Origin: a virus
Length of the DNA stretch: 10,067 bases
Strand: one strand, 5' to 3'
Virus genome (UHGV): UHGV-1547097
A program made the position numbers and the translations under genes. The notes below the pieces were generated by a model. That model was not told the DNA's origin and made no database searches. It was given only the letters and a program-made list of their open reading frames with translations. Shown piece after piece: positions 2,083-9,075 of this stretch (position 1 is its first letter; every line of letters starts with the position of its first letter).

Positions 2083-2472
2083 TCAGGCGGCTGCACCCGC
2101 CGTTTTCTCGTACTTACTGATAGTGATCTCGACCTTCCCTTCCGGGATAACCGGTCCCCACTCCACCAGCATTCTTTTCACCTGACTGTCGTCTTCCCAC
2201 ACACCCGCGTGGGTCAGGGCGTCAAACAGCGCCTTGTTATAGTTGTCCAGATCGCGGATCCGGTTATCCGGAGGAAACAACACGATCTCCACTGAAGCAG
2301 GTGCCGACGTTGGTTTCGGCAGACGACGTAACTGCTCAACTATTGCTGCGCACGCCGCGCTCTGGAATTTGCGCCCCGCCGCGCTTATCAGGCTCTTACC
2401 AGCAAACGCCCCTTTGTTGGGGTGTCGCCAGTACGTGTTCACGCTGGGCGGAAAAGGCAGGATCAGCTTCAT
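2083..2472 (-). CDS. rusA: Crossover junction endodeoxyribonuclease RusA (Holliday junction resolvase)
   Basis: 129 aa. Motifs shared with E. coli RusA: LPxPPSxNxYxRH near the N-terminus, DxDNxxKAxFDALTxAGxWxDDxQV in the centre, LEITI-like C-terminus. Start ATG overlaps the upstream stop (ATGA). Confidence 0.85.
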   Translation of the reverse strand: MKLILPFPPSVNTYWRHPNKGAFAGKSLISAAGRKFQSAACAAIVEQLRRLPKPTSAPASVEIVLFPPDNRIRDLDNYNKALFDALTHAGVWEDDSQVKRMLVEWGPVIPEGKVEITISKYEKTAGAAA

Positions 2473-2795
2473 ACTTTCAGGCCCCTCTCATGTAACCAGT
2501 GGGCTGCACGCAGCCTGGCGTTTTCCTCACCGGCAAGCAGTGAGCGGATAATCCCGGCCGCCTCGCTGTCGTCGTCCTTCACCGCGGTATGAAGAGTGAT
2601 ACCCCGGGCCACGCCACGCTTTATCGTGATGACGCCTTTTTTCTCCAGTGCGCGAAGATGCTCCACCGCTGCATTCACTGAACGGTATCCCAGCATGGTT
2701 GCCACCTCCTGATTGGTTGGCGGAAAGCCACGCTCTTTCTGGTAAGAAATCAGCATATCCAGCACCTGCTGCTGGCATTGAGTTAACGTCGTCAT
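2469..2795 (-). CDS. LexA-like N-terminal DNA-binding domain protein with no S24 peptidase domain
   Basis: 108 aa. Residues 1-70 (MTTLTQCQQQVLDMLISYQKERGFPPTNQEVATMLGYRSVNAAVEHLRALEKKGVITIKRGVARGITL) align with the LexA winged-helix DBD (LTxRQQEVxDxIxxxxxxxGxPPTxxEIAxxLGFRSPNAAEEHLKALxRKGVIEI...RGI). The C-terminal 38 aa are unrelated to the protease domain. ATGA overlaps with both neighbours. Confidence 0.75.
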   Translation of the reverse strand: MTTLTQCQQQVLDMLISYQKERGFPPTNQEVATMLGYRSVNAAVEHLRALEKKGVITIKRGVARGITLHTAVKDDDSEAAGIIRSLLAGEENARLRAAHWLHERGLKV

Positions 2796-3445
2796 GCCGC
2801 CATCTCCCTGACCAATTTTTCTGCCTGCTGGCGAACCTGCGCCAGAAAGGCCTCACCACATGCCTCAAGTTCATCGCGCCCGATGTAGCTGATTGCCGCT
2901 CCCTTCCAGGTCTTATCGAAAACAGCAATAGCACCAGCGAAGAACGCTCCTGTCGGCACCTGCTTCTCATCCTTCGGGATAAACCAGACAGGCAGTTCAA
3001 AACCAATACGCCCGCGAATAAAAGCAATATGGTCCGCATCTTCCGGCCACCACACTTCGCTGGTGGCAGCTTTGATCAGGAAAACATAGCGCCCGCCCTT
3101 ATCACGCATGGAACTGGCATGTTTCATGATGTAACGCATGCCGGTGATGTATTGCCCCTCATGCTGACTGGCGCGGCTGTACGGGGGATTGCCAAAGGCA
3201 GCACCTTTAAGCTCCGCAAGACGTTCTGACCAGTCATGCGCCAGCGCATTGTCTTCCGCCGTGTAATACGCGGCACATTTGGCGTTATCACCGTCAGTAA
3301 ACAGATCCAGAACAAACGGGCCAAACAGGGTGTTAATTCCCCAGAAAATGTTGTCCGGCGTGCGCCACTGATCGCCCACTTCCTTCAGTTCATGGGCTGG
3401 TTTGTTCCGCAGTTCCACCAGCGCCTGGCAATATTTATTACTCAT
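2792..3445 (-). CDS. Phage N6-adenine DNA methyltransferase (Dam-like, small phage Dam family)
   Basis: ATG at 3445 overlaps upstream stop (TAATG); GGGGG 4 nt upstream. Contains the catalytic NPPY motif (FGNPPYS) and a WRTP motif. The ORF track extends to a GTG at 3478, which I consider less likely. Confidence 0.8.
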   Translation of the reverse strand: MSNKYCQALVELRNKPAHELKEVGDQWRTPDNIFWGINTLFGPFVLDLFTDGDNAKCAAYYTAEDNALAHDWSERLAELKGAAFGNPPYSRASQHEGQYITGMRYIMKHASSMRDKGGRYVFLIKAATSEVWWPEDADHIAFIRGRIGFELPVWFIPKDEKQVPTGAFFAGAIAVFDKTWKGAAISYIGRDELEACGEAFLAQVRQQAEKLVREMAA

Positions 3446-3933
3446 TAAGCCCCCACGTAATTCCCTGACAGATACCACTCTTCACCCGATGCAGCGCGCT
3501 TGCTGCTTTTCCGTAAGCACCGCTCACGACGCGTCAGAAAATTGTTTCGTTCTGGCTGGGAGTGGCTTTCACGGAATGCCGCCATCCACACGGTTGCAGC
3601 ACGACGGTATAAGCCCCTTGACTCCAGTTCTTCAGCCTGGCGGGTCAGGCACAAAATCACCCGGGGATCGTTAGTGCCGACATAGAAATTGCGCACAGGT
3701 CTGGTTTCTCGAACTGGTTGTGGTTCCGGCCCCTGCGCTCTCTCAGTCAGGCGCGGGAAATGTCTGCGTGTATCTCCTTCACAACGGTGAGCCACACGCC
3801 CACTCTGACGTAACTTGCTTGCTGACTGCAGAACGCGCTGCCGTGAGTAACCAGCAAAAGCATCCGCAATGTCTCCGGAAGTGCACCCCGGATGGGCTTC
3901 AATGAATTTCTGAACGTCATTTAACAGACTCAT
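3445..3933 (-). CDS. YfdN-like phage protein of unknown function, in the position usually held by a helicase loader
   Basis: ATG at 3933 with GGGGGTG Shine-Dalgarno upstream (the track starts at GTG 3939). Start overlaps the initiator stop; stop overlaps the Dam start. No Walker A motif visible. Resemblance to E. coli K-12 CPS-53 YfdN is from memory. Confidence 0.55.
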   Translation of the reverse strand: MSLLNDVQKFIEAHPGCTSGDIADAFAGYSRQRVLQSASKLRQSGRVAHRCEGDTRRHFPRLTERAQGPEPQPVRETRPVRNFYVGTNDPRVILCLTRQAEELESRGLYRRAATVWMAAFRESHSQPERNNFLTRRERCLRKSSKRAASGEEWYLSGNYVGA

Positions 3934-3935
3934 GA

Positions 3936-4877
3936 TCACCCCCTAAATCCTGCCGGGATCTGGCTGTAGTCCACGTTGTCGTAACTGGCTTTGAAGTACG
4001 GGTCTTCACGTTTTTGTGTGTGCGTGCTGACGGACGGCGATAAGCGCAGGGAAAGCTCATCCCATTTTTCCCGCAACTTCGACGGGCTGAGCACGTTACG
4101 GCACCAGAACGGATCGCGGCTGACGCGGCTGTACATCTCGCAGATTTGTTTGTGAGTACGACCATCCTGCACACACATCAGGCGAATTTCGTTTGCCCAG
4201 GCTGTCCAGTTAGGTTCTTTGGGACGAACCACCTCGCCGTCACATTCGGCGGCCTGCTCGTACAGGGCGATGATTTTTTTCCAAAGCCACTGTGCGCAGG
4301 TCAAATCATCCTGCGTCCCCCACTGGCACTTTTTAGGGCTGAATACAACCGCATCAGGATGGCGAGTTAAAAAATCCTGTTCATCCGTCTGCGTGTCCGG
4401 TTGCGAAGCGTCCGGACGAGAAGGTTTTTTATCTGACGGATCATGTTTTGATTTTACTGACGGATCCCCGCCAGATTCTGACGGGTGAAAACCCGCTTTT
4501 TTGCCAGATTTCGACGCATCAAATTTTGACGGGTCAGATTTTGATGCATCAGATTTTGACGGGTCAGAATCTGACAGTTGAGAAAATGCCGCTGCCTGAA
4601 GCTTCGCAACGTTAAGCTGATAAACATTCGACGCATTGCGGTTACCCTGGCGACGCGCCTTACGCGTTAACCAGCCTTCTGCTTCCAGCCGTGCGATAGC
4701 CGTTCTGACGGTACTCATCCCCGCGCCAATCTGGCGGGCAATGGTTTCAATCGATGGCCAGCACACACCTTCGTCATTACTGAAATCAGCCAGGCGGGCC
4801 ATAATTGCCACGCTGGATAATTTCATGCCTGACGCTGCGCAACCATCCCATACATAGCCGGTTAATTTAGTGCTCAT
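3936..4877 (-). CDS. Phage replication initiation protein (O-like): N-terminal winged-helix HTH, acidic Ser/Asp repeat linker, C-terminal domain
   Basis: 313 aa, ATG at 4877 with GAGG 6 nt upstream. N-terminal segment SSVAIMARLADFSNDEGVCWPSIETIARQIGAGMSTVRTAIARLEAEGWL is typical of replication-initiator HTH domains. The central linker SDSDPSKSDASKSDPSKFDASKS is encoded by the iteron array. Confidence 0.8.
   Translation of the reverse strand: MSTKLTGYVWDGCAASGMKLSSVAIMARLADFSNDEGVCWPSIETIARQIGAGMSTVRTAIARLEAEGWLTRKARRQGNRNASNVYQLNVAKLQAAAFSQLSDSDPSKSDASKSDPSKFDASKSGKKAGFHPSESGGDPSVKSKHDPSDKKPSRPDASQPDTQTDEQDFLTRHPDAVVFSPKKCQWGTQDDLTCAQWLWKKIIALYEQAAECDGEVVRPKEPNWTAWANEIRLMCVQDGRTHKQICEMYSRVSRDPFWCRNVLSPSKLREKWDELSLRLSPSVSTHTQKREDPYFKASYDNVDYSQIPAGFRG
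4446..4577. repeat. Iteron array (candidate replication origin) inside the initiator gene
   Basis: Tandem ~15-bp units on the + strand: AGATTCTGACGGGTGA (4473-4488), AGATTTCGACGCATCA (4506-4521), AATTTTGACGGGTCAG (4522-4537), ATTTTGATGCATCAG (4538-4552), ATTTTGACGGGTCAG (4553-4567), plus degenerate copies at 4446-4466 and 4568-4577. Each unit has a palindromic core (TGACGGGTCA or TGATGCATCA). Confidence 0.75.
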
Positions 4878-4886
4878 GACCGACCT

Positions 4887-5225
4887 CTATTTCCCTGAAT
4901 TTACGACAAAACTGTTCGAGCGGACTGAAGCACTCATGCTCATAGCCTTCGCGGAGGTAGATAACCCGTTGTGTTTCCGGTTCCCAACGAATGACTCTGA
5001 CGGGCACTCCGTAGTGATCTTTGAACCAGCGGTTAACTTGTCGCAAAGGACTGTCTCCTTCTGCCGGTTGAAATCACCCACAGCCCACTCAGCAAAGCTG
5101 TGGGTTACAATTTCCCTGTCACCTGGTACATTCACTGCATAGCAATATTCCACCTTCGCTTTTCCACCCGGTACAGGAAGCGCAATCAGTTGCGAGCGAC
5201 GGTAGTGTGTTGTTAAACTGTTCAT
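4887..5225 (-). CDS. Hypothetical early-operon protein (112 aa)
   Basis: ATG at 5225 overlaps upstream stop (ATGA), GGAGA 9 nt upstream; stop TAG lies 9 nt before the initiator ATG, giving a tight operon fit. No family recognised; the C-terminal third is Ser-rich. Confidence 0.5.
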
Positions 5226-5836
5226 GCGTTAGTTTCTCCACAACCAGAAGCAATCGACGCCACGACGCCCGGAGCTGCACACTCGCGGGCGTCATTACTT
5301 TCTGAAATGCAAAAGATTTTGTAGACAAGTGCTGCATGCTCCTGCAGCTTCGAAATTGAGAGATACAGCTCGTCGTTAATTGCTGTCTTCTCATGCGGTT
5401 CCACTACACCGTCTTCGATTGCTGAACGAATCTGTTTTGAATAACTGCCGATCTGTTCAATGACTTCCAGCAGACGCTGGTTAATATCGGCGTTGTCCAC
5501 ATCCTCGACGTCAGGAAGAGACACAAAGACGCCATTTGCAGACTGCGCCACAGCGTCAGCAATGAAGTGAGTTCCACCAGCACGTTGCAAAATCATTGCC
5601 CATCCCAGCGGGAAAATCTGATCGCCATCGGCACGAAGGCGGTTAAATAATGCGTTCTCTGTTACATCCAGCCAGTCAGCTGCTTCAGCGTAACCACCCG
5701 GCAACTTTGCGATAGTTTTTCTGACAGCTTTCACGTACCACTCAGGCTGTTTTTCTACTTTCCAGTGATGCTTACCCACGGTTAGCCTCATCGTTCTGTG
5801 GTTTCTGTTAATCGATTTATCCATTAGATTTTTCAT
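5222..5836 (-). CDS. Early regulatory protein in the cII position (possibly CII/YdaT-like); start uncertain
   Basis: Open frame from 5893 (GTG) to 5222. Candidate ATG starts at 5836, 5824 and 5791, none with a strong Shine-Dalgarno. First gene after cro in the early-right operon. Functional assignment is by position only. Confidence 0.45.
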
Positions 5837-6017
5837 AAAGCTCAGGTTTAAATGGCAACCGTCCGCAAGTTCTATATGCAGCTTCTGCTGCACGTCCTTT
5901 TGGAATTAACTGGCCCGGACGGTTTCGCCACTGATAAACGGCTTCAGTTGTTATGCCGAAAAAAGCAGCAACTTTCTCAATACTGCCGAAGTAGCTTTCG
6001 ATATCGTCAGTTGTCAT
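5817..6017 (-). CDS. cro: Cro-like HTH repressor
   Basis: 66 aa, ATG at 6017 with GGAGA 4 nt upstream. Transcribed divergently from the cI-like gene. HTH-like segment AAFFGITTEAVYQWRNR. Confidence 0.8.
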   Translation of the reverse strand: MTTDDIESYFGSIEKVAAFFGITTEAVYQWRNRPGQLIPKGRAAEAAYRTCGRLPFKPELYEKSNG

Positions 6018-6114: not shown

Positions 6115-6741
6115 ATGGAAACGGTTGGTCAGCGTATAAAAGCTCTGAGAAGAGTTACCAGAACGTCCCAGAAAGAATTGGGTAAATTTTGTGGAGTAAG
6201 CGACGTTGCTGTGGGGTACTGGGAGAAAGACATCAATACCCCTGGTGGGGAGGCACTTTCGAAATTAGCGAAGTTCTTCAATACGTCAATAGATTACATT
6301 CTTTATGGTGCTGAGTTTGAAGGCAAACTCGTCACAAACATGCGCAGAGTTCCTGTAATATCGTGGGTTCAGGCTGGGCAGTTTACTGAGTGCAGGGCAG
6401 CAGAAGTGTTTAGTGAAGTGGACAAGTGGGTAGATACATCATTAAAGGTTGGTGATAACTCATTTGCATTAGAGGTTAAAGGTGACTCCATGACTAACCC
6501 TAATGGCCTCCCAACAATACCAGAAGGCGCAACAGTGATTGTAGATCCAGATGCAGAACCTCGTCATGGAAAAATAGTCATCGCTCGACTTGATGGAACA
6601 AACGAAGCTACAGTAAAAAAATTAGTCATCGATGGCCCTCAAAAGTTTTTAGTGCCATTAAATCCTCGGTATCCCAACATCCCTATCAATGGTAATTGCC
6701 TTATCATTGGTGTAGTCAAAGGAGTTCAATACGAACTCTAA
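6115..6741 (+). CDS. cI: CI-like prophage repressor (XRE-type HTH plus S24 LexA-like autopeptidase domain)
   Basis: 208 aa. N-terminal HTH (QKELGKFCGVSDVAVGYWEK). Candidate Ala-Gly cleavage site in WVQAGQF. S24 catalytic Ser motif KGDSM and a downstream Lys (TVKKLV). Divergent from cro. Confidence 0.9.
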   Translation: METVGQRIKALRRVTRTSQKELGKFCGVSDVAVGYWEKDINTPGGEALSKLAKFFNTSIDYILYGAEFEGKLVTNMRRVPVISWVQAGQFTECRAAEVFSEVDKWVDTSLKVGDNSFALEVKGDSMTNPNGLPTIPEGATVIVDPDAEPRHGKIVIARLDGTNEATVKKLVIDGPQKFLVPLNPRYPNIPINGNCLIIGVVKGVQYEL

Positions 6742-6794
6742 GACCTCTCTTCTCTAACTAAGGCACCGAACTAAGAAAAGTTTGGTGTTTTCTC

Positions 6795-6823
6795 TTGCCA
6801 TAATAACTAAGTTAAGTTAGATT
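6795..6823 (+). promoter_or_regulatory. Candidate PL-like promoter overlapped by an operator palindrome (OL-like)
   Basis: -35 TTGCCA (6795-6800), 17-nt spacer, -10 TAGATT (6818-6823). Operator-type site C CTAAGTTAAGTTAG (6807-6820) overlaps spacer and -10. Further CTAAG half-sites at 6758-6762 and 6771-6775. Confidence 0.45.
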
Positions 6824-6947
6824 TTATATCAAAGATAACGAACAGGCAGGACGCCCACGAAGTAGCCGCCTGGGGCATATGAAGTCCAGGATGATTCGTT
6901 GAGTCATGTTGTGCCACTAGGCACTCATGTTAAAGCAGGTGTATGAA

Positions 6948-7223
6948 ATGAAAGTCCAGATTTTAAACAATAACTCTGAAGTCGTTTGGTCATACGACAT
7001 AGCCGCCCCTGTAGATCAGAGCGGCGATAGCTGGACCAATGGGAAACATCAGATTATGGCTGGAGTTGTGTTCTCTTTACGCCGTGCTTTGGAACAGGCT
7101 GAAGTATTTCCATCAGACCCTGAATGGAAATGGCCTTTTTCTATTTGTCCAAATTCGGAGAGCACATTTCAGAAAATTGGTCAGAAAGTCGCACTCGAAG
7201 AGCATCAGCCAACTGTTTCCTGA
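6948..7223 (+). CDS. Hypothetical small protein (91 aa), first ORF downstream of cI
   Basis: ATG at 6948 preceded by AGGTG with a 6-nt spacer (track starts at ATG 6927, in frame). Last 83 nt overlap the convergent ORF 7141-7386. No family recognised and no Arg-rich N-like motif. Confidence 0.4.
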   Translation: MKVQILNNNSEVVWSYDIAAPVDQSGDSWTNGKHQIMAGVVFSLRRALEQAEVFPSDPEWKWPFSICPNSESTFQKIGQKVALEEHQPTVS

Positions 7224-7386
7224 TTTTTTCAGGTAACTCGTCGGCATCGCAGAAACAACAACGCTCGATCATGTTGAAAGCCGATTCGTAGAACTGTTTC
7301 TGCTGAGTGTCGCTGAGACAGGAAAAGAGCGACGTTACGATGATTTTATTAATTGCATTATCAAGTTCTTTTTCATCAAAAGTCAT
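7141..7386 (-). CDS. Hypothetical small protein (81 aa), convergent to the preceding ORF
   Basis: ATG at 7386 with AAGGA 7 nt upstream. Protein-like composition (MTFDEKELDNAINKIIVTSLF...ERCCFCDADELPEK). No family recognised. Confidence 0.45.
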   Translation of the reverse strand: MTFDEKELDNAINKIIVTSLFSCLSDTQQKQFYESAFNMIERCCFCDADELPEKIRKQLADALRVRLSDQFSEMCSPNLDK

Positions 7387-7640
7387 TTGATTTTCCTTTT
7401 ATGTATACGGGCTTAAAAGGATACCACCGAGCCTGAAGTGGTGAAAAGACAGGCACATAACAGCTAAGTATTTTCAACCAGAGAGAATCCTTAGCGTTGT
7501 GGTGAATGCGGCTCAGCGCACGCGGGTTAAGGTTGAGGCTGACAGTCGACCTTCTGTGGATACCCACCCGCCTGGTGTGCAACCTTCGCCAGGCACCGGG
7601 AGGCACCCGGCACCACAACTTTATGCTGTGTGTAGTCCTG

Positions 7641-7686
7641 GCGGTACCAGTTTGTACCCTTGCTTCCGGCTGGTACCGCTCTTTTT
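7641..7686 (+). terminator. Intrinsic-terminator-like hairpin followed by a T-run
   Basis: GCGGTACCAG (7641-7650) pairs with CTGGTACCGC (7670-7679) over a 19-nt loop, followed by TCTTTTT (7680-7686). The loop is long for a classical terminator. Confidence 0.45.
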
Positions 7687-7823
7687 ACAAAACGGAGAAG
7701 AGCATCACCGGACGACGGGCTCATAACCCAATCCATCCGGGCGGCTGCCACCGCAGGTGTTCTTCTCTGTTTTGTGGAGAAACTAATCGGCCTTGCAGGG
7801 TCGATATGATGAGGAGTAGCAAA

Positions 7824-8186
7824 ATGGCTAGCGAACGCAGTACTGATGTGCAGGCATTTATCGGGGAGCTGGACGGCGGCGTATTTGAAACCAAAATCGG
7901 CGCAGTTCTCAGTGAAGTCGCTTCCGGTGTGATGAACACGAAAACCAAAGGGAAGGTCTCACTCAATCTGGAAATCGAACCGTTTGATGAGAACCGTGTG
8001 AAAATCAAACACAAACTCTCATATGTTCGCCCGACTAACCGCGGGAAAATTTCCGAAGAAGACACCACCGAAACGCCGATGTATGTCAATCGCGGTGGTC
8101 GCCTGACTATTCTGCAGGAAGACCAGGGACAATTACTGACTCTTGCCGGTGAACCTGACGGAAAACTCCGCGCAGCAGGTCGTTAA
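7824..8186 (+). CDS. yfdP: YfdP-like phage protein (120 aa), unknown function
   Basis: ATG at 7824 with AGGAG 7 nt upstream. The track's upstream extension to 7506 lacks an RBS and lies in the structured noncoding region. Matches my recollection of E. coli K-12 CPS-53 YfdP (MASERSTDVQAFIGELDGG...). Confidence 0.7.
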   Translation: MASERSTDVQAFIGELDGGVFETKIGAVLSEVASGVMNTKTKGKVSLNLEIEPFDENRVKIKHKLSYVRPTNRGKISEEDTTETPMYVNRGGRLTILQEDQGQLLTLAGEPDGKLRAAGR

Positions 8187-8251: not shown

Positions 8252-9075
8252 ATGTCTCAGAACTTAGACGCAACCGCAATTAATCAAATCCATGCCCTTA
8301 TTTCTGCTCAGGGTGTTAATGAAATTATCAGTAAGATTGGTGCCGATGCTGTGGCATTGCCTGAGAATTACCGCATTCATGATCTGGAAAAATTTAATTT
8401 AAATCGTTTCCGTTTCCGTGGTGCGCTTTCCACTGCCAGCATCGATGACTTTACCCGTTATTCTAAAGATCTTGCAGATGAAGGCACCCGCTGCTTTATC
8501 GATGCCGATAATATGCGTGCCGTCAGTGTGCTTAACCTGGGTACTATTGATGAGCCAGGTCACGCAGATAACACTGCCACTCTCAAACTGAAAAAGACAG
8601 CACCGTTCTCTGCTCTGTTGTCTGTTAACGGCGAGCGTAACTCCCAGAAATCACTGGCAGAATGGATTGAAGACTGGGCCGACTACCTTGTGGGCTTTGA
8701 TGCTAATGGTGATGCCATTCAGGCAACAAAAGCGGCTGCGGCAGTCCGTAAAATCACGATTGAAGCAAACCAGACCGCTGATTTTGAAGACAATGACTTC
8801 AGCGGCAAACGCTCCCTGATGGAGTCTGTCGAAGCGAAGACCAAAGATATTATGCCTGTGGCATTTGAATTTAAATGCGTTCCGTTTGAAGGTCTGAAAG
8901 AACGTCCGTTTAAATTACGCCTCAGCATTATCACTGGCGATCGTCCGTACTGGTTCTGCGCATTATTCAGCTGGAAGCGGTGCAGGAAGATATGGCTAAC
9001 GAATTTCGTGATCTGCTTGTTGAGAAATTCAAGGACAGCAAAGTAGAAACCTTTATTGGTACTTTCACCGCCTGA
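8252..9075 (+). pseudogene. yfdQ: YfdQ-like phage protein with an apparent single-base deletion (-1 frameshift near 8945-8950)
   Basis: ATG at 8252 with GAGGA 6 nt upstream. The starting frame reads protein-like sequence to about 8946, then Trp/Cys-rich text to TAG 9046. The -1 frame is open from 8914 and reads ...[42 protein letters not shown] to TGA at 9073-9075. Total span is 824 nt, one short of a multiple of three. Confidence 0.65.

Follow-up and report, generated by a model that had tools for sequence, protein, structure and literature searches.

Which genes, if any, lie directly behind the repressor gene of a lambdoid prophage, and what might they do there? The question is raised by a 10,067-nt stretch of the virus genome UHGV-1547097 (the window; all coordinates are positions in it), in which two small open reading frames (ORFs) converge just downstream of a cI-type repressor gene. 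ORF A lies on the plus strand (6948..7223, 91 aa) and ORF B on the minus strand (7141..7386, 81 aa), and the two share an overlap of 83 nt (7141..7223). An earlier note on this DNA, made from the letters alone, had proposed them as a candidate exclusion or defence insertion, with antisense control or a likeness to toxin-antitoxin pairs. We examined the proposal by comparing the locus with related prophages, phages, and bacterial genomes. The comparison shows that A and B are both genuine protein genes, and that they form a compact, horizontally mobile cassette in which the two genes stand tail to tail.

The reading frames of A and B

The ORF list gives A as 6927..7223 on the plus strand (98 aa), and an in-frame ATG at 6948 gives a product of 91 aa. 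We placed the start codon at 6948, because MKVQ is the N-terminus of all A homologues and because the homology to prophages of other immunity types starts at 6946. The Shine-Dalgarno (SD) sequence of A, AGGTG, is found at 6937–6941, 6 nt ahead of this ATG, and that of B, AAGGA as read from the sequence, at 7398–7394 on the minus strand, 7 nt ahead of the ATG. Both ORFs, their 83-nt overlap, and an SD for each were thus present as the earlier note had described them. AAGGA is kept in six of the seven B loci, with AAGGG in the remaining one (L218), and SD-like motifs precede A and B in all six diverged lineages, among which the DNA upstream of A is unrelated.

ORF A is orf33 of Shigella phage SfV (PHROG 3195; WP_021563905.1). 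Its conserved core comprises residues 1–66 (6948–7145), and its tail, residues 67–91, is antisense to the 3' end of B. ORF B belongs to PHROG 3311, and three helices are predicted for its product. The Prokaryotic Genome Annotation Pipeline (PGAP) and the GenBank record of SfV annotate A only, and the record of phage vB_EcoM-720R4 annotates B only. The two products are predicted to be small, acidic, soluble proteins: the isoelectric points are 4.95 (A) and 4.56 (B), the grand average of hydropathy is −0.4, A holds seven lysine and arginine residues, and neither protein has a membrane segment. An Arg-rich motif is absent from both, in keeping with the earlier view that neither protein is N-like.

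Purifying selection in both frames

The selection test used 15 pairs from six lineages that are 50–70% identical (the window and the loci L008, L212, L215, L219, and L221). In the segment that belongs to A only, the proportions of synonymous (pS) and nonsynonymous (pN) differences were 0.72 and 0.24, respectively, and in the segment that belongs to B only they were 0.79 and 0.25. Purifying selection was confined to the own frame of A and of B, with a pN/pS of about 0.3. The other five frames of each segment were without signal, save for the complementary frame, in which the shared wobble position produced a partial echo. When the window was compared with L008 alone (about 70% DNA identity), the non-overlapping part of A gave a pS of 0.85 and a pN of 0.19, with 17/8/37 differences at the three codon positions, and the non-overlapping part of B gave 0.83 and 0.18, with 14/4/30 differences. 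The nearest other frame was in each case the wobble-sharing complementary one (pN/pS 0.25 and 0.32). The conservation test had been set beforehand, with purifying selection on only one or on neither ORF as the finding that would speak against the pair; its outcome was own-frame purifying selection in both.

The fact that each annotation pipeline calls just one of the two ORFs would fit a locus with a single gene, the other ORF being its shadow on the opposite strand. We consider this extremely improbable, as A and B each show frame-specific purifying selection in their non-overlapping majority (192 and 162 nt, respectively), and for each of them a separate conserved SD and a separate set of diverged homologues are found.

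These homologues came from several searches. A word-index search returned chiefly near-identical copies and frameshift artefacts, together with one truly diverged A homologue, P0040, at locus L008. This locus is a Rac-like prophage with a different repressor, and it carries an uncalled B homologue on the opposite strand. By profile search, A homologues with lengths of 91, 93, 107 or 122 aa were obtained at 49–68% identity. For B, a full HMMER scan over 1.84 billion representatives showed the family to be small and to reach down to 38% identity. Scanning the genome contigs with the B alignment gave no match, and the scan of viral contigs with B gave near-identical copies only. The single-nucleotide polymorphisms among 50 population alleles were mostly singletons, and their signal was weak.

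A and B move as a unit

By tblastn, A and B were found together, convergent and overlapping, in L008, L212, L215, L219 (Salmonella), and L221. The distance from the start codon of A to that of B is exactly 439 nt in all six lineages, with no indels. The pair stands behind at least four repressor types, namely an S24 type (the window and L212), a RacR-like type (L008), and helix-turn-helix (HTH) repressors (L219 and L221). In L215 it sits in a different place, just upstream of a holin/lysozyme cassette. A is co-oriented with the flanking phage operon, and B opposed to it, in every A-B locus. A search of 50,697 phage records placed A or B in SfV, vB_EcoM-720R4, and SKA5 only, each of which has both genes. 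The cassette was matched in 551 out of 5,426 complete E. coli genomes, with at least 80% of it present in 425; roughly 8–10% of complete E. coli genomes, O157:H7 strains included, are carriers.

The borders of the exchanged DNA were mapped by blastn. The segment 6837–6900 is shared across immunity types, the interval 6900/6946–7420 is variable, and the sequence is shared again from 7420 onwards. The left border is an early-left leader segment on the plus strand (6837..6900), common to phages with different repressors; it is 93–100% identical in SfV, SfII, SfIV, and 689R6 and 82% identical in L008. The variable interval holds a 144-aa minus-strand gene in SfIV and 689R6 (SfIV_36), a 63-aa minus-strand gene with a convergent 68-aa plus-strand ORF in SfII (SfII_36), and a BssS-family gene (Pfam, 2e-15) or further unknown genes in other contigs. 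The minus-strand cargo gene nearly always begins about 37 nt from the right border, and a convergent plus-strand ORF is often present. The suggestion of an accessory, moron-like insertion beside the repressor was borne out, in that unrelated cassettes replace A and B between the leader and a conserved box at 7419–7455. A moron, in the concept of Hendrix and Juhala, is an autonomous transcription unit inserted between conserved lambdoid phage genes. Intervals equivalent to this cargo hotspot (6900–7420) were seen in L004, L005, L006, L094, L130, L148, L191, and L206.

A and B could still be independent accessory genes, A belonging to the early operon (for example, as an anti-defence or host-takeover gene) and B being a self-promoted moron, with nothing but tight linkage between them and with an overlap that is incidental read-through. 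We regard this as a real possibility, though somewhat unlikely. It is favoured by the relatives of B that stand alone in the Q-holin slot, by the many genomes in which A is frameshifted and B kept, and by the other cassettes of the slot, which also pair a plus-strand ORF with a minus-strand ORF, both unrelated to A and B. It has to contend with the 439-nt spacing, which is kept without indels at about 35% nucleotide divergence, with the movement of the pair as a unit, both into another slot (L215) and to places behind four or more repressor types, and with the fact that all A homologues examined are accompanied by B.

Natural knockouts bear on a different alternative. A 1-nt deletion in the A-run at 7044 frameshifts A to a 54-aa product (P0046) and leaves B intact, and alleles with A knocked out and B intact account for 137 blocks of the collection. 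Rarer alleles have a nonsense change (E50* or R66*) or a start loss (M1I) in B, with A intact. Two small co-inherited genes beside an immunity region, in an antisense layout that recalls type I systems, might be a classical toxin-antitoxin or abortive-infection pair, one product being toxic and the other its obligatory antidote. Since natural knockouts of either partner exist, such a pair is very unlikely. Moreover, A and B are convergent and not co-transcribed, and their acidic, soluble, non-hydrophobic products have no toxin, antitoxin, or PADLOC likeness. The toxin-antitoxin idea of the earlier note is therefore disfavoured.

Two further observations were made on the cassette and its surroundings. 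In L189 and in the E. coli matches H57–H61, the right-border box and the first 67 codons of B are fused to unrelated sequence beside a phage tail gene; this fusion is a rearranged remnant. In the Salmonella prophage L219, a 384-aa HSDR_N-domain protein (2552–3706) is encoded between the repressor and the A-B pair, and is likely another cargo or defence gene.

The overlap

Residue 66 (WPFS-I/L) closes the conserved core of A, exactly where B has its stop codon. From there the A frame runs on for 25 to 56 codons in the antisense of B, giving the total lengths of 91, 93, 107 or 122 aa. The two frames are in the phase A1/B1, A2/B3, A3/B2 (codon positions of A and of B); therefore, no site in the overlap is synonymous in both. 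Variable sites were spread over the three phases as 17/19/16, out of 27 each, so that the frame signal was flat.

Three findings count towards a dual constraint. The wobble sites of B were variable at 19 of 27 positions in the overlap vs 50 of 54 elsewhere (Fisher p=0.017), a point that also counts against independent genes. Not one of the six lineages interrupts the A frame short of codon 91, and the chance values for the single lineages multiply to 0.017. Finally, a helix at residues 74–85 of the AlphaFold2 (AF2) model of A overlaps the tail. Against dual coding, nucleotide divergence was not reduced in the overlap (0.343 vs 0.336 and 0.356 outside), the tail of A gave a pN/pS of 0.76–1.1, and an open A tail of at least 25 codons arose in 32% of synonymous reshuffles of B. 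The absence of clear selection on the tail, together with an open tail that is common by chance, is what independent genes would leave.

We infer that the A tail past residue 66 is largely read-through into the antisense of B, and any sequence that A has after residue 91 is clearly dispensable. A constraint on residues as far as about 86 is hinted at as well, and the comparison suggests some dual coding within 7141–7223. The overlap is thus probably read-through for the most part, and a short stretch of it may be truly dual-coding.

Transcription signals to the left of A

The earlier note had placed the pair in a slot of the rexAB type, right after cI. The region between cI and A did not fit this position. 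It contains a terminator hairpin, three operator half-sites, and a promoter-like site on the plus strand (6756..6830). The cI terminator hairpin, read from the sequence as CACCGAAC..GTTTGGTG followed by TTTTCTCTT, lies at 6764–6795, and the SfV record annotates a terminator at the equivalent place. AACTAAG half-sites (direct repeat D1) follow cI at 6756, 6769, and 6805; five copies of this heptamer are found in the 10 kb vs 0.92 expected by chance, the other two being in the cI-cro intergenic region. A promoter scan gave a sigma-70-like promoter on the plus strand, TTGCCA (6795), a 17-nt spacer, and TAGATT (6823), with 9 of 12 hexamer matches. The segment 6756–6830 is where OL/pL would be expected, and the assignment of pL is putative. 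With terminator, operators, and pL between cI and A, A would be the first ORF of a repressed early-left transcript and would not be cotranscribed with cI. It thus appears to occupy the position of lambda N.

In L212, the leader element (about 3880–3950) is found on the far side of the A-B cassette. The leader of the window contains a G-U-rich hairpin on the minus strand at 6858–6842. This hairpin was tried as a terminator for B and rejected, since B of L212 has the element on its upstream side.

The right-border box

The swap site is bounded on the right by a conserved box on the minus strand (7418..7455), in which we see a candidate promoter for B. Read on the minus strand, the box consists of the −35-like TTCACC (7445–7440), a 16-nt spacer that includes a hairpin (7442–7423) and a TGG, and TATCCT (7423–7418); the last, −10-like hexamer lies about 30 nt ahead of the start codon of B. 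More than 120 IMG/VR contigs contain the 37-mer 7419–7455 without a mismatch; L008, whose adjoining cassette is only 70% identical, contains it unchanged as well. Ahead of B, the pattern TT(C/A)ACC-hairpin-TA(T/A/C)CCT recurs at the same distance in each of the seven B loci, also where B sits in another slot. The stems show compensatory changes (ACCAC/GTGGT, ACCGC/GCGGT, ACCACGC/GCGTGGT, and ACCACA/TGTGGT), and L218 has a shorter CCCT/AGGG stem at the same place, so that the hairpin folds in seven of seven sequences. The hairpins were folded singly, as the MAFFT alignment had set stems of unequal loop length out of register. We infer that the box is an extended −10-type promoter of the minus-strand cargo gene. 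The hairpin 7442–7423 was also considered as a minus-strand terminator, and this was rejected because its U-run is not conserved in L008 or L219.

A scan of the window gave no terminator-like site between A and B, and the cassette is without a flanking terminator of its own. Because of this, a transcript started at pL must run antisense through B, and one started at the box must run antisense through A. The GC content of the cassette (0.40–0.46) is like that of the cI region, and its base composition is not atypical.

The downstream RNA and the regulatory alternative

Past the box, a structured RNA of the STnc100 type was matched on the plus strand at 7466..7688 (Rfam RF02076, 46.5 bits vs a gathering score of 47, E 2.9e-8). 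It is a multi-hairpin RNA with a fold z of −3.7. It ends in a strong intrinsic terminator at 7641–7686 (inverted repeat I7), GCGGTACCAG..CTGGTACCGC followed by TCTTTTT. In L008 and L221, too, the cassette is followed by STnc100-like matches. Copies of STnc100 are expressed from prophages of enterohaemorrhagic E. coli (PMC5331693) and are known prophage markers (bioRxiv 10.64898/2026.05.13.724894). Judging from the terminator at 7641–7686, an early-left transcript that carries A would end there unless it is read through, and a pL transcript without antitermination would encode only A. Phages with the same downstream RNA and terminator are found from which A is absent, and A is therefore not a dedicated antiterminator of this RNA.

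PGAP calls a 'frameshifted hypothetical protein' over 7466–7688 in the ST540 and FRIK944 genomes, which is probably a mis-called RNA region. The first 22 nt of the box recur as a 73% direct repeat inside the RNA at 7558–7579. A search for P4/P1-style complementarity of the RNA with the leader or the box gave only direct repeats (D2) and one weak inverted match of 14/18 (I2), and the idea was abandoned. We also considered the STnc100-like RNA as the immunity RNA of SfV and dropped it, as the SfV record labels orf37, across cro, as the 'immunity region'.

Could the cassette instead be a regulatory module of the lysis-lysogeny switch? In that case, leftward transcription from the box would interfere with pL, and A or B would modulate CI, the STnc100-like terminator, or early timing. 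The layout lends itself to this, with facing promoters about 590 nt apart and no terminator between them, and with the cassette placed within the early-left leader and followed closely by the structured RNA with its strong terminator. Furthermore, SfV is said, in a passage of PMC3475682 that cites other work, to use termination- and RNA-based immunity. Opposed to it, unrelated genes replace the cassette in otherwise near-identical phages, and the cassette is therefore not a core regulator. The cassette is also present in the lysis-cassette context of L215, proteins and not transcripts alone are under selection, and the 'immunity region' of the SfV record is on the other side of cro. On balance, we find a regulatory module quite improbable. 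Termination-mediated immunity in SfV is reportedly the subject of Roberts, Allison and Verma 2007 (J Gen Virol 88:3187); as the 'immunity region' label of the SfV record is on orf37, we do not map that system onto the cassette.

The surrounding prophage

The 1.1 kb around the cassette are 99.5% identical to a prophage of E. coli ST540, which is integrated beside a tRNA-Thr gene, upstream of proA, and 99% identical to SfV. The repressor gene (6115..6741, plus strand) encodes an HTH_3 and a Peptidase_S24 domain (Pfam PF01381, 1.3e-9, and PF00717, 1.8e-27, respectively), and PGAP names its product 'LexA family protein' in the 99.5% identical ST540 prophage. On the minus strand there are a P22-Cro-like gene (5817–6017) and a YmfL/CII-CP76 gene (5222–5893). 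The first conserved early-left gene past the RNA is yfdP (7824..8186, plus strand; PHROG 204), as mapped over from the PGAP annotation of ST540, and yfdQ (DUF2303) and yfdR (HD) are also found downstream of the cassette. These genes (S24 repressor, Cro-like, YmfL/CII-CP76, yfdP, yfdQ, and yfdR) identify the window as an immunity region, that of a lambdoid E. coli prophage of the SfV/CPS-53 type, in which the early-left operon is on the plus strand.

Several further features of the window were recorded. The yfdQ gene (8252–9046) lacks one base near 8946 relative to ST540, which alters the last ~34 residues of the protein (264 aa vs 274 aa) and reflects either a decaying prophage or a sequencing error. 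The stretch from the terminator to the start of yfdP contains a 25-nt inverted repeat (7687–7711 / 7751–7775) with 80% complementarity and 39 nt between its arms. In a nin-like region between a PerC-like gene and rusA, a 108-aa protein (2469–2795, minus strand) is called 'LexA repressor' by PGAP; judged by its length and sequence, with no domain search run, it would be a LexA-like N-terminal DNA-binding part alone.

A proposed explanation for the pair

In our judgement, there is about an even chance that the best explanation is a lysogen-active B moron with a lytic-phase partner A, the two being mutually exclusive through convergent transcription. A would be translated from the CI-repressed early-left transcript, and would be made only on infection or induction. 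B would be transcribed from its own extended −10-type promoter, and could be made in the lysogen. The two transcription units would face each other, each running antisense through the other, so that expression would be mutually exclusive. As an accessory (moron) protein, B would do its work in the lysogen, where exclusion, defence, or host modulation is its most plausible role. A would be the partner of B in the lytic phase and might, for example, neutralise B so that the resident phage can develop. Physical coupling of A to B apart, a functional coupling is probable. From the geometry, antisense or convergent-transcription control is plausible, and an exclusion or defence function of the pair is pure conjecture.

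A more far-reaching form of this explanation appears doubtful to us. The pair would then be an undescribed two-protein module, in which B made by the lysogen blocks or senses phages or alters the host, A made early in the lytic phase switches B off, the overlap is dual-coding, and the box is a portable platform for a hotspot of convergent cassettes in SfV/CPS-53/Rac-type prophages.

A number of results weigh against a lysogen-active B with a lytic-phase partner A. Some concern the partnership. Distant relatives of B (38–41% identity) occur without A, in the Q-holin cargo slot and opposed to the operon, and the A-frameshift lineage is widespread (L225–L228, including a 5.5-Mb genome); with B lacking A in distant lineages and kept where A is frameshifted, the partnership is not obligatory. 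Others concern the wiring. The box promoter has 8 of 12 hexamer matches, below the threshold of the scan. In other cassettes, the minus-strand genes that this box precedes are unrelated to B, and as a putative promoter of such genes it says nothing specific on B. With the leader on the other side in L212, the regulatory geometry is not uniform.

The remaining points concern function and fold. Searches of A and B against Pfam, NCBIfam, PADLOC, and PHROGs gave no match of known function, PHROGs 3195 and 3311 being both labelled 'unknown function', and profile searches against the sequences of PDB gave no match for A or B. The AF2 model of B, from a single sequence, had a predicted local distance difference test score (pLDDT) of 58, with helices at 5–21, 26–44, and 53–75, and that of A, from a 13-sequence alignment, had a pLDDT of 63, with a beta-hairpin and helices at 34–53 and 74–85; both are of low confidence. 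Foldseek with the A model against PDB and BFVD gave nothing at E<0.3, and the model is too weak to be trusted. In PADLOC-DB v2, the best match was SspC (E 0.035, 10 bits), which is noise. The earlier note had seen no likeness to a recognised family, and none emerged from Pfam, NCBIfam, PADLOC, or the PDB profiles, nor, for the A model, from Foldseek. A peptide and accession search of a library of papers found neither protein mentioned. A CCxC cysteine motif of B was considered as a metal site and rejected, as it is absent from the more distant homologues.

Comparison with known systems

The lambda rexAB genes resemble A and B in being accessory genes that adjoin a prophage repressor and are candidates for lysogen protection. 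They differ in place and type: rexAB lies between cI and OL/pL and is cotranscribed with cI, whereas here the terminator, operators, and pL precede A, and B is on the other strand. There is no similarity in sequence or size, and A and B are without a membrane segment. Another analogy may be sieB/esc of lambda, P22, and Rac, an abortive-infection gene of the early-left region that comes with a phage-encoded escape function. It would share with the cassette a putative lysogen-active gene within the early-left region and a product that spares the resident phage. The sieB gene encodes a membrane protein larger than A or B and also, from within the same frame, Esc; A and B, in contrast, are two separate, convergent, soluble acidic proteins, with no homology to either. 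In the Salmonella locus L219, the A-B pair is found just upstream of kilR-gam, which is the position of sieB in Rac as well.

With lambdoid morons, the cassette shares a swappable insertion between segments that are adjacent in relatives, a B unit with a promoter-like element opposing the operon, and distant B relatives in the classic Q-holin moron slot. Unlike them, it is a two-gene convergent unit of fixed geometry, in which A appears to borrow the transcription of the operon, and it shows neither a terminator of its own nor a GC anomaly. The defence pairs of mycobacteriophage immunity cassettes (Phrann gp29/gp30) offer a further possible analogy. They, too, are small gene pairs next to the repressor whose families are unknown, and one gene of the two acts in the lysogen, as B would here. 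Defence by pairs of the Phrann gp29/gp30 type has reportedly been demonstrated experimentally; they come from different hosts and protein families, and a defence role of A-B would be conjectural. The likeness to sieB/esc and to the mycobacteriophage pairs may thus tell how the pair works, and does not imply membership. Finally, antisense-overlapping protein gene pairs are said to have been claimed from Ribo-seq in E. coli O157:H7. Those pairs likewise consist of opposite-strand ORFs that share sequence, whereas A and B share only 83 nt (about 30% of each) and have independent comparative support for each gene.

The cassette is carried by O157:H7 strains and by the Shigella serotype-converting phage SfV, yet each pipeline annotates only one of its genes. 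The overlap of A and B is a rare, well-supported antisense overlap of genes in an unusual convergent architecture. The swap hotspot is mapped between the leader and the promoter/hairpin box, and BssS-family and other cargo genes take the same orientation in it. If A and B prove to be two unrelated cargo genes, the locus would be a case of ordinary prophage mosaicism. As selected, co-mobile, and oppositely wired genes, they may be a new pair for lysogen protection and self-escape.

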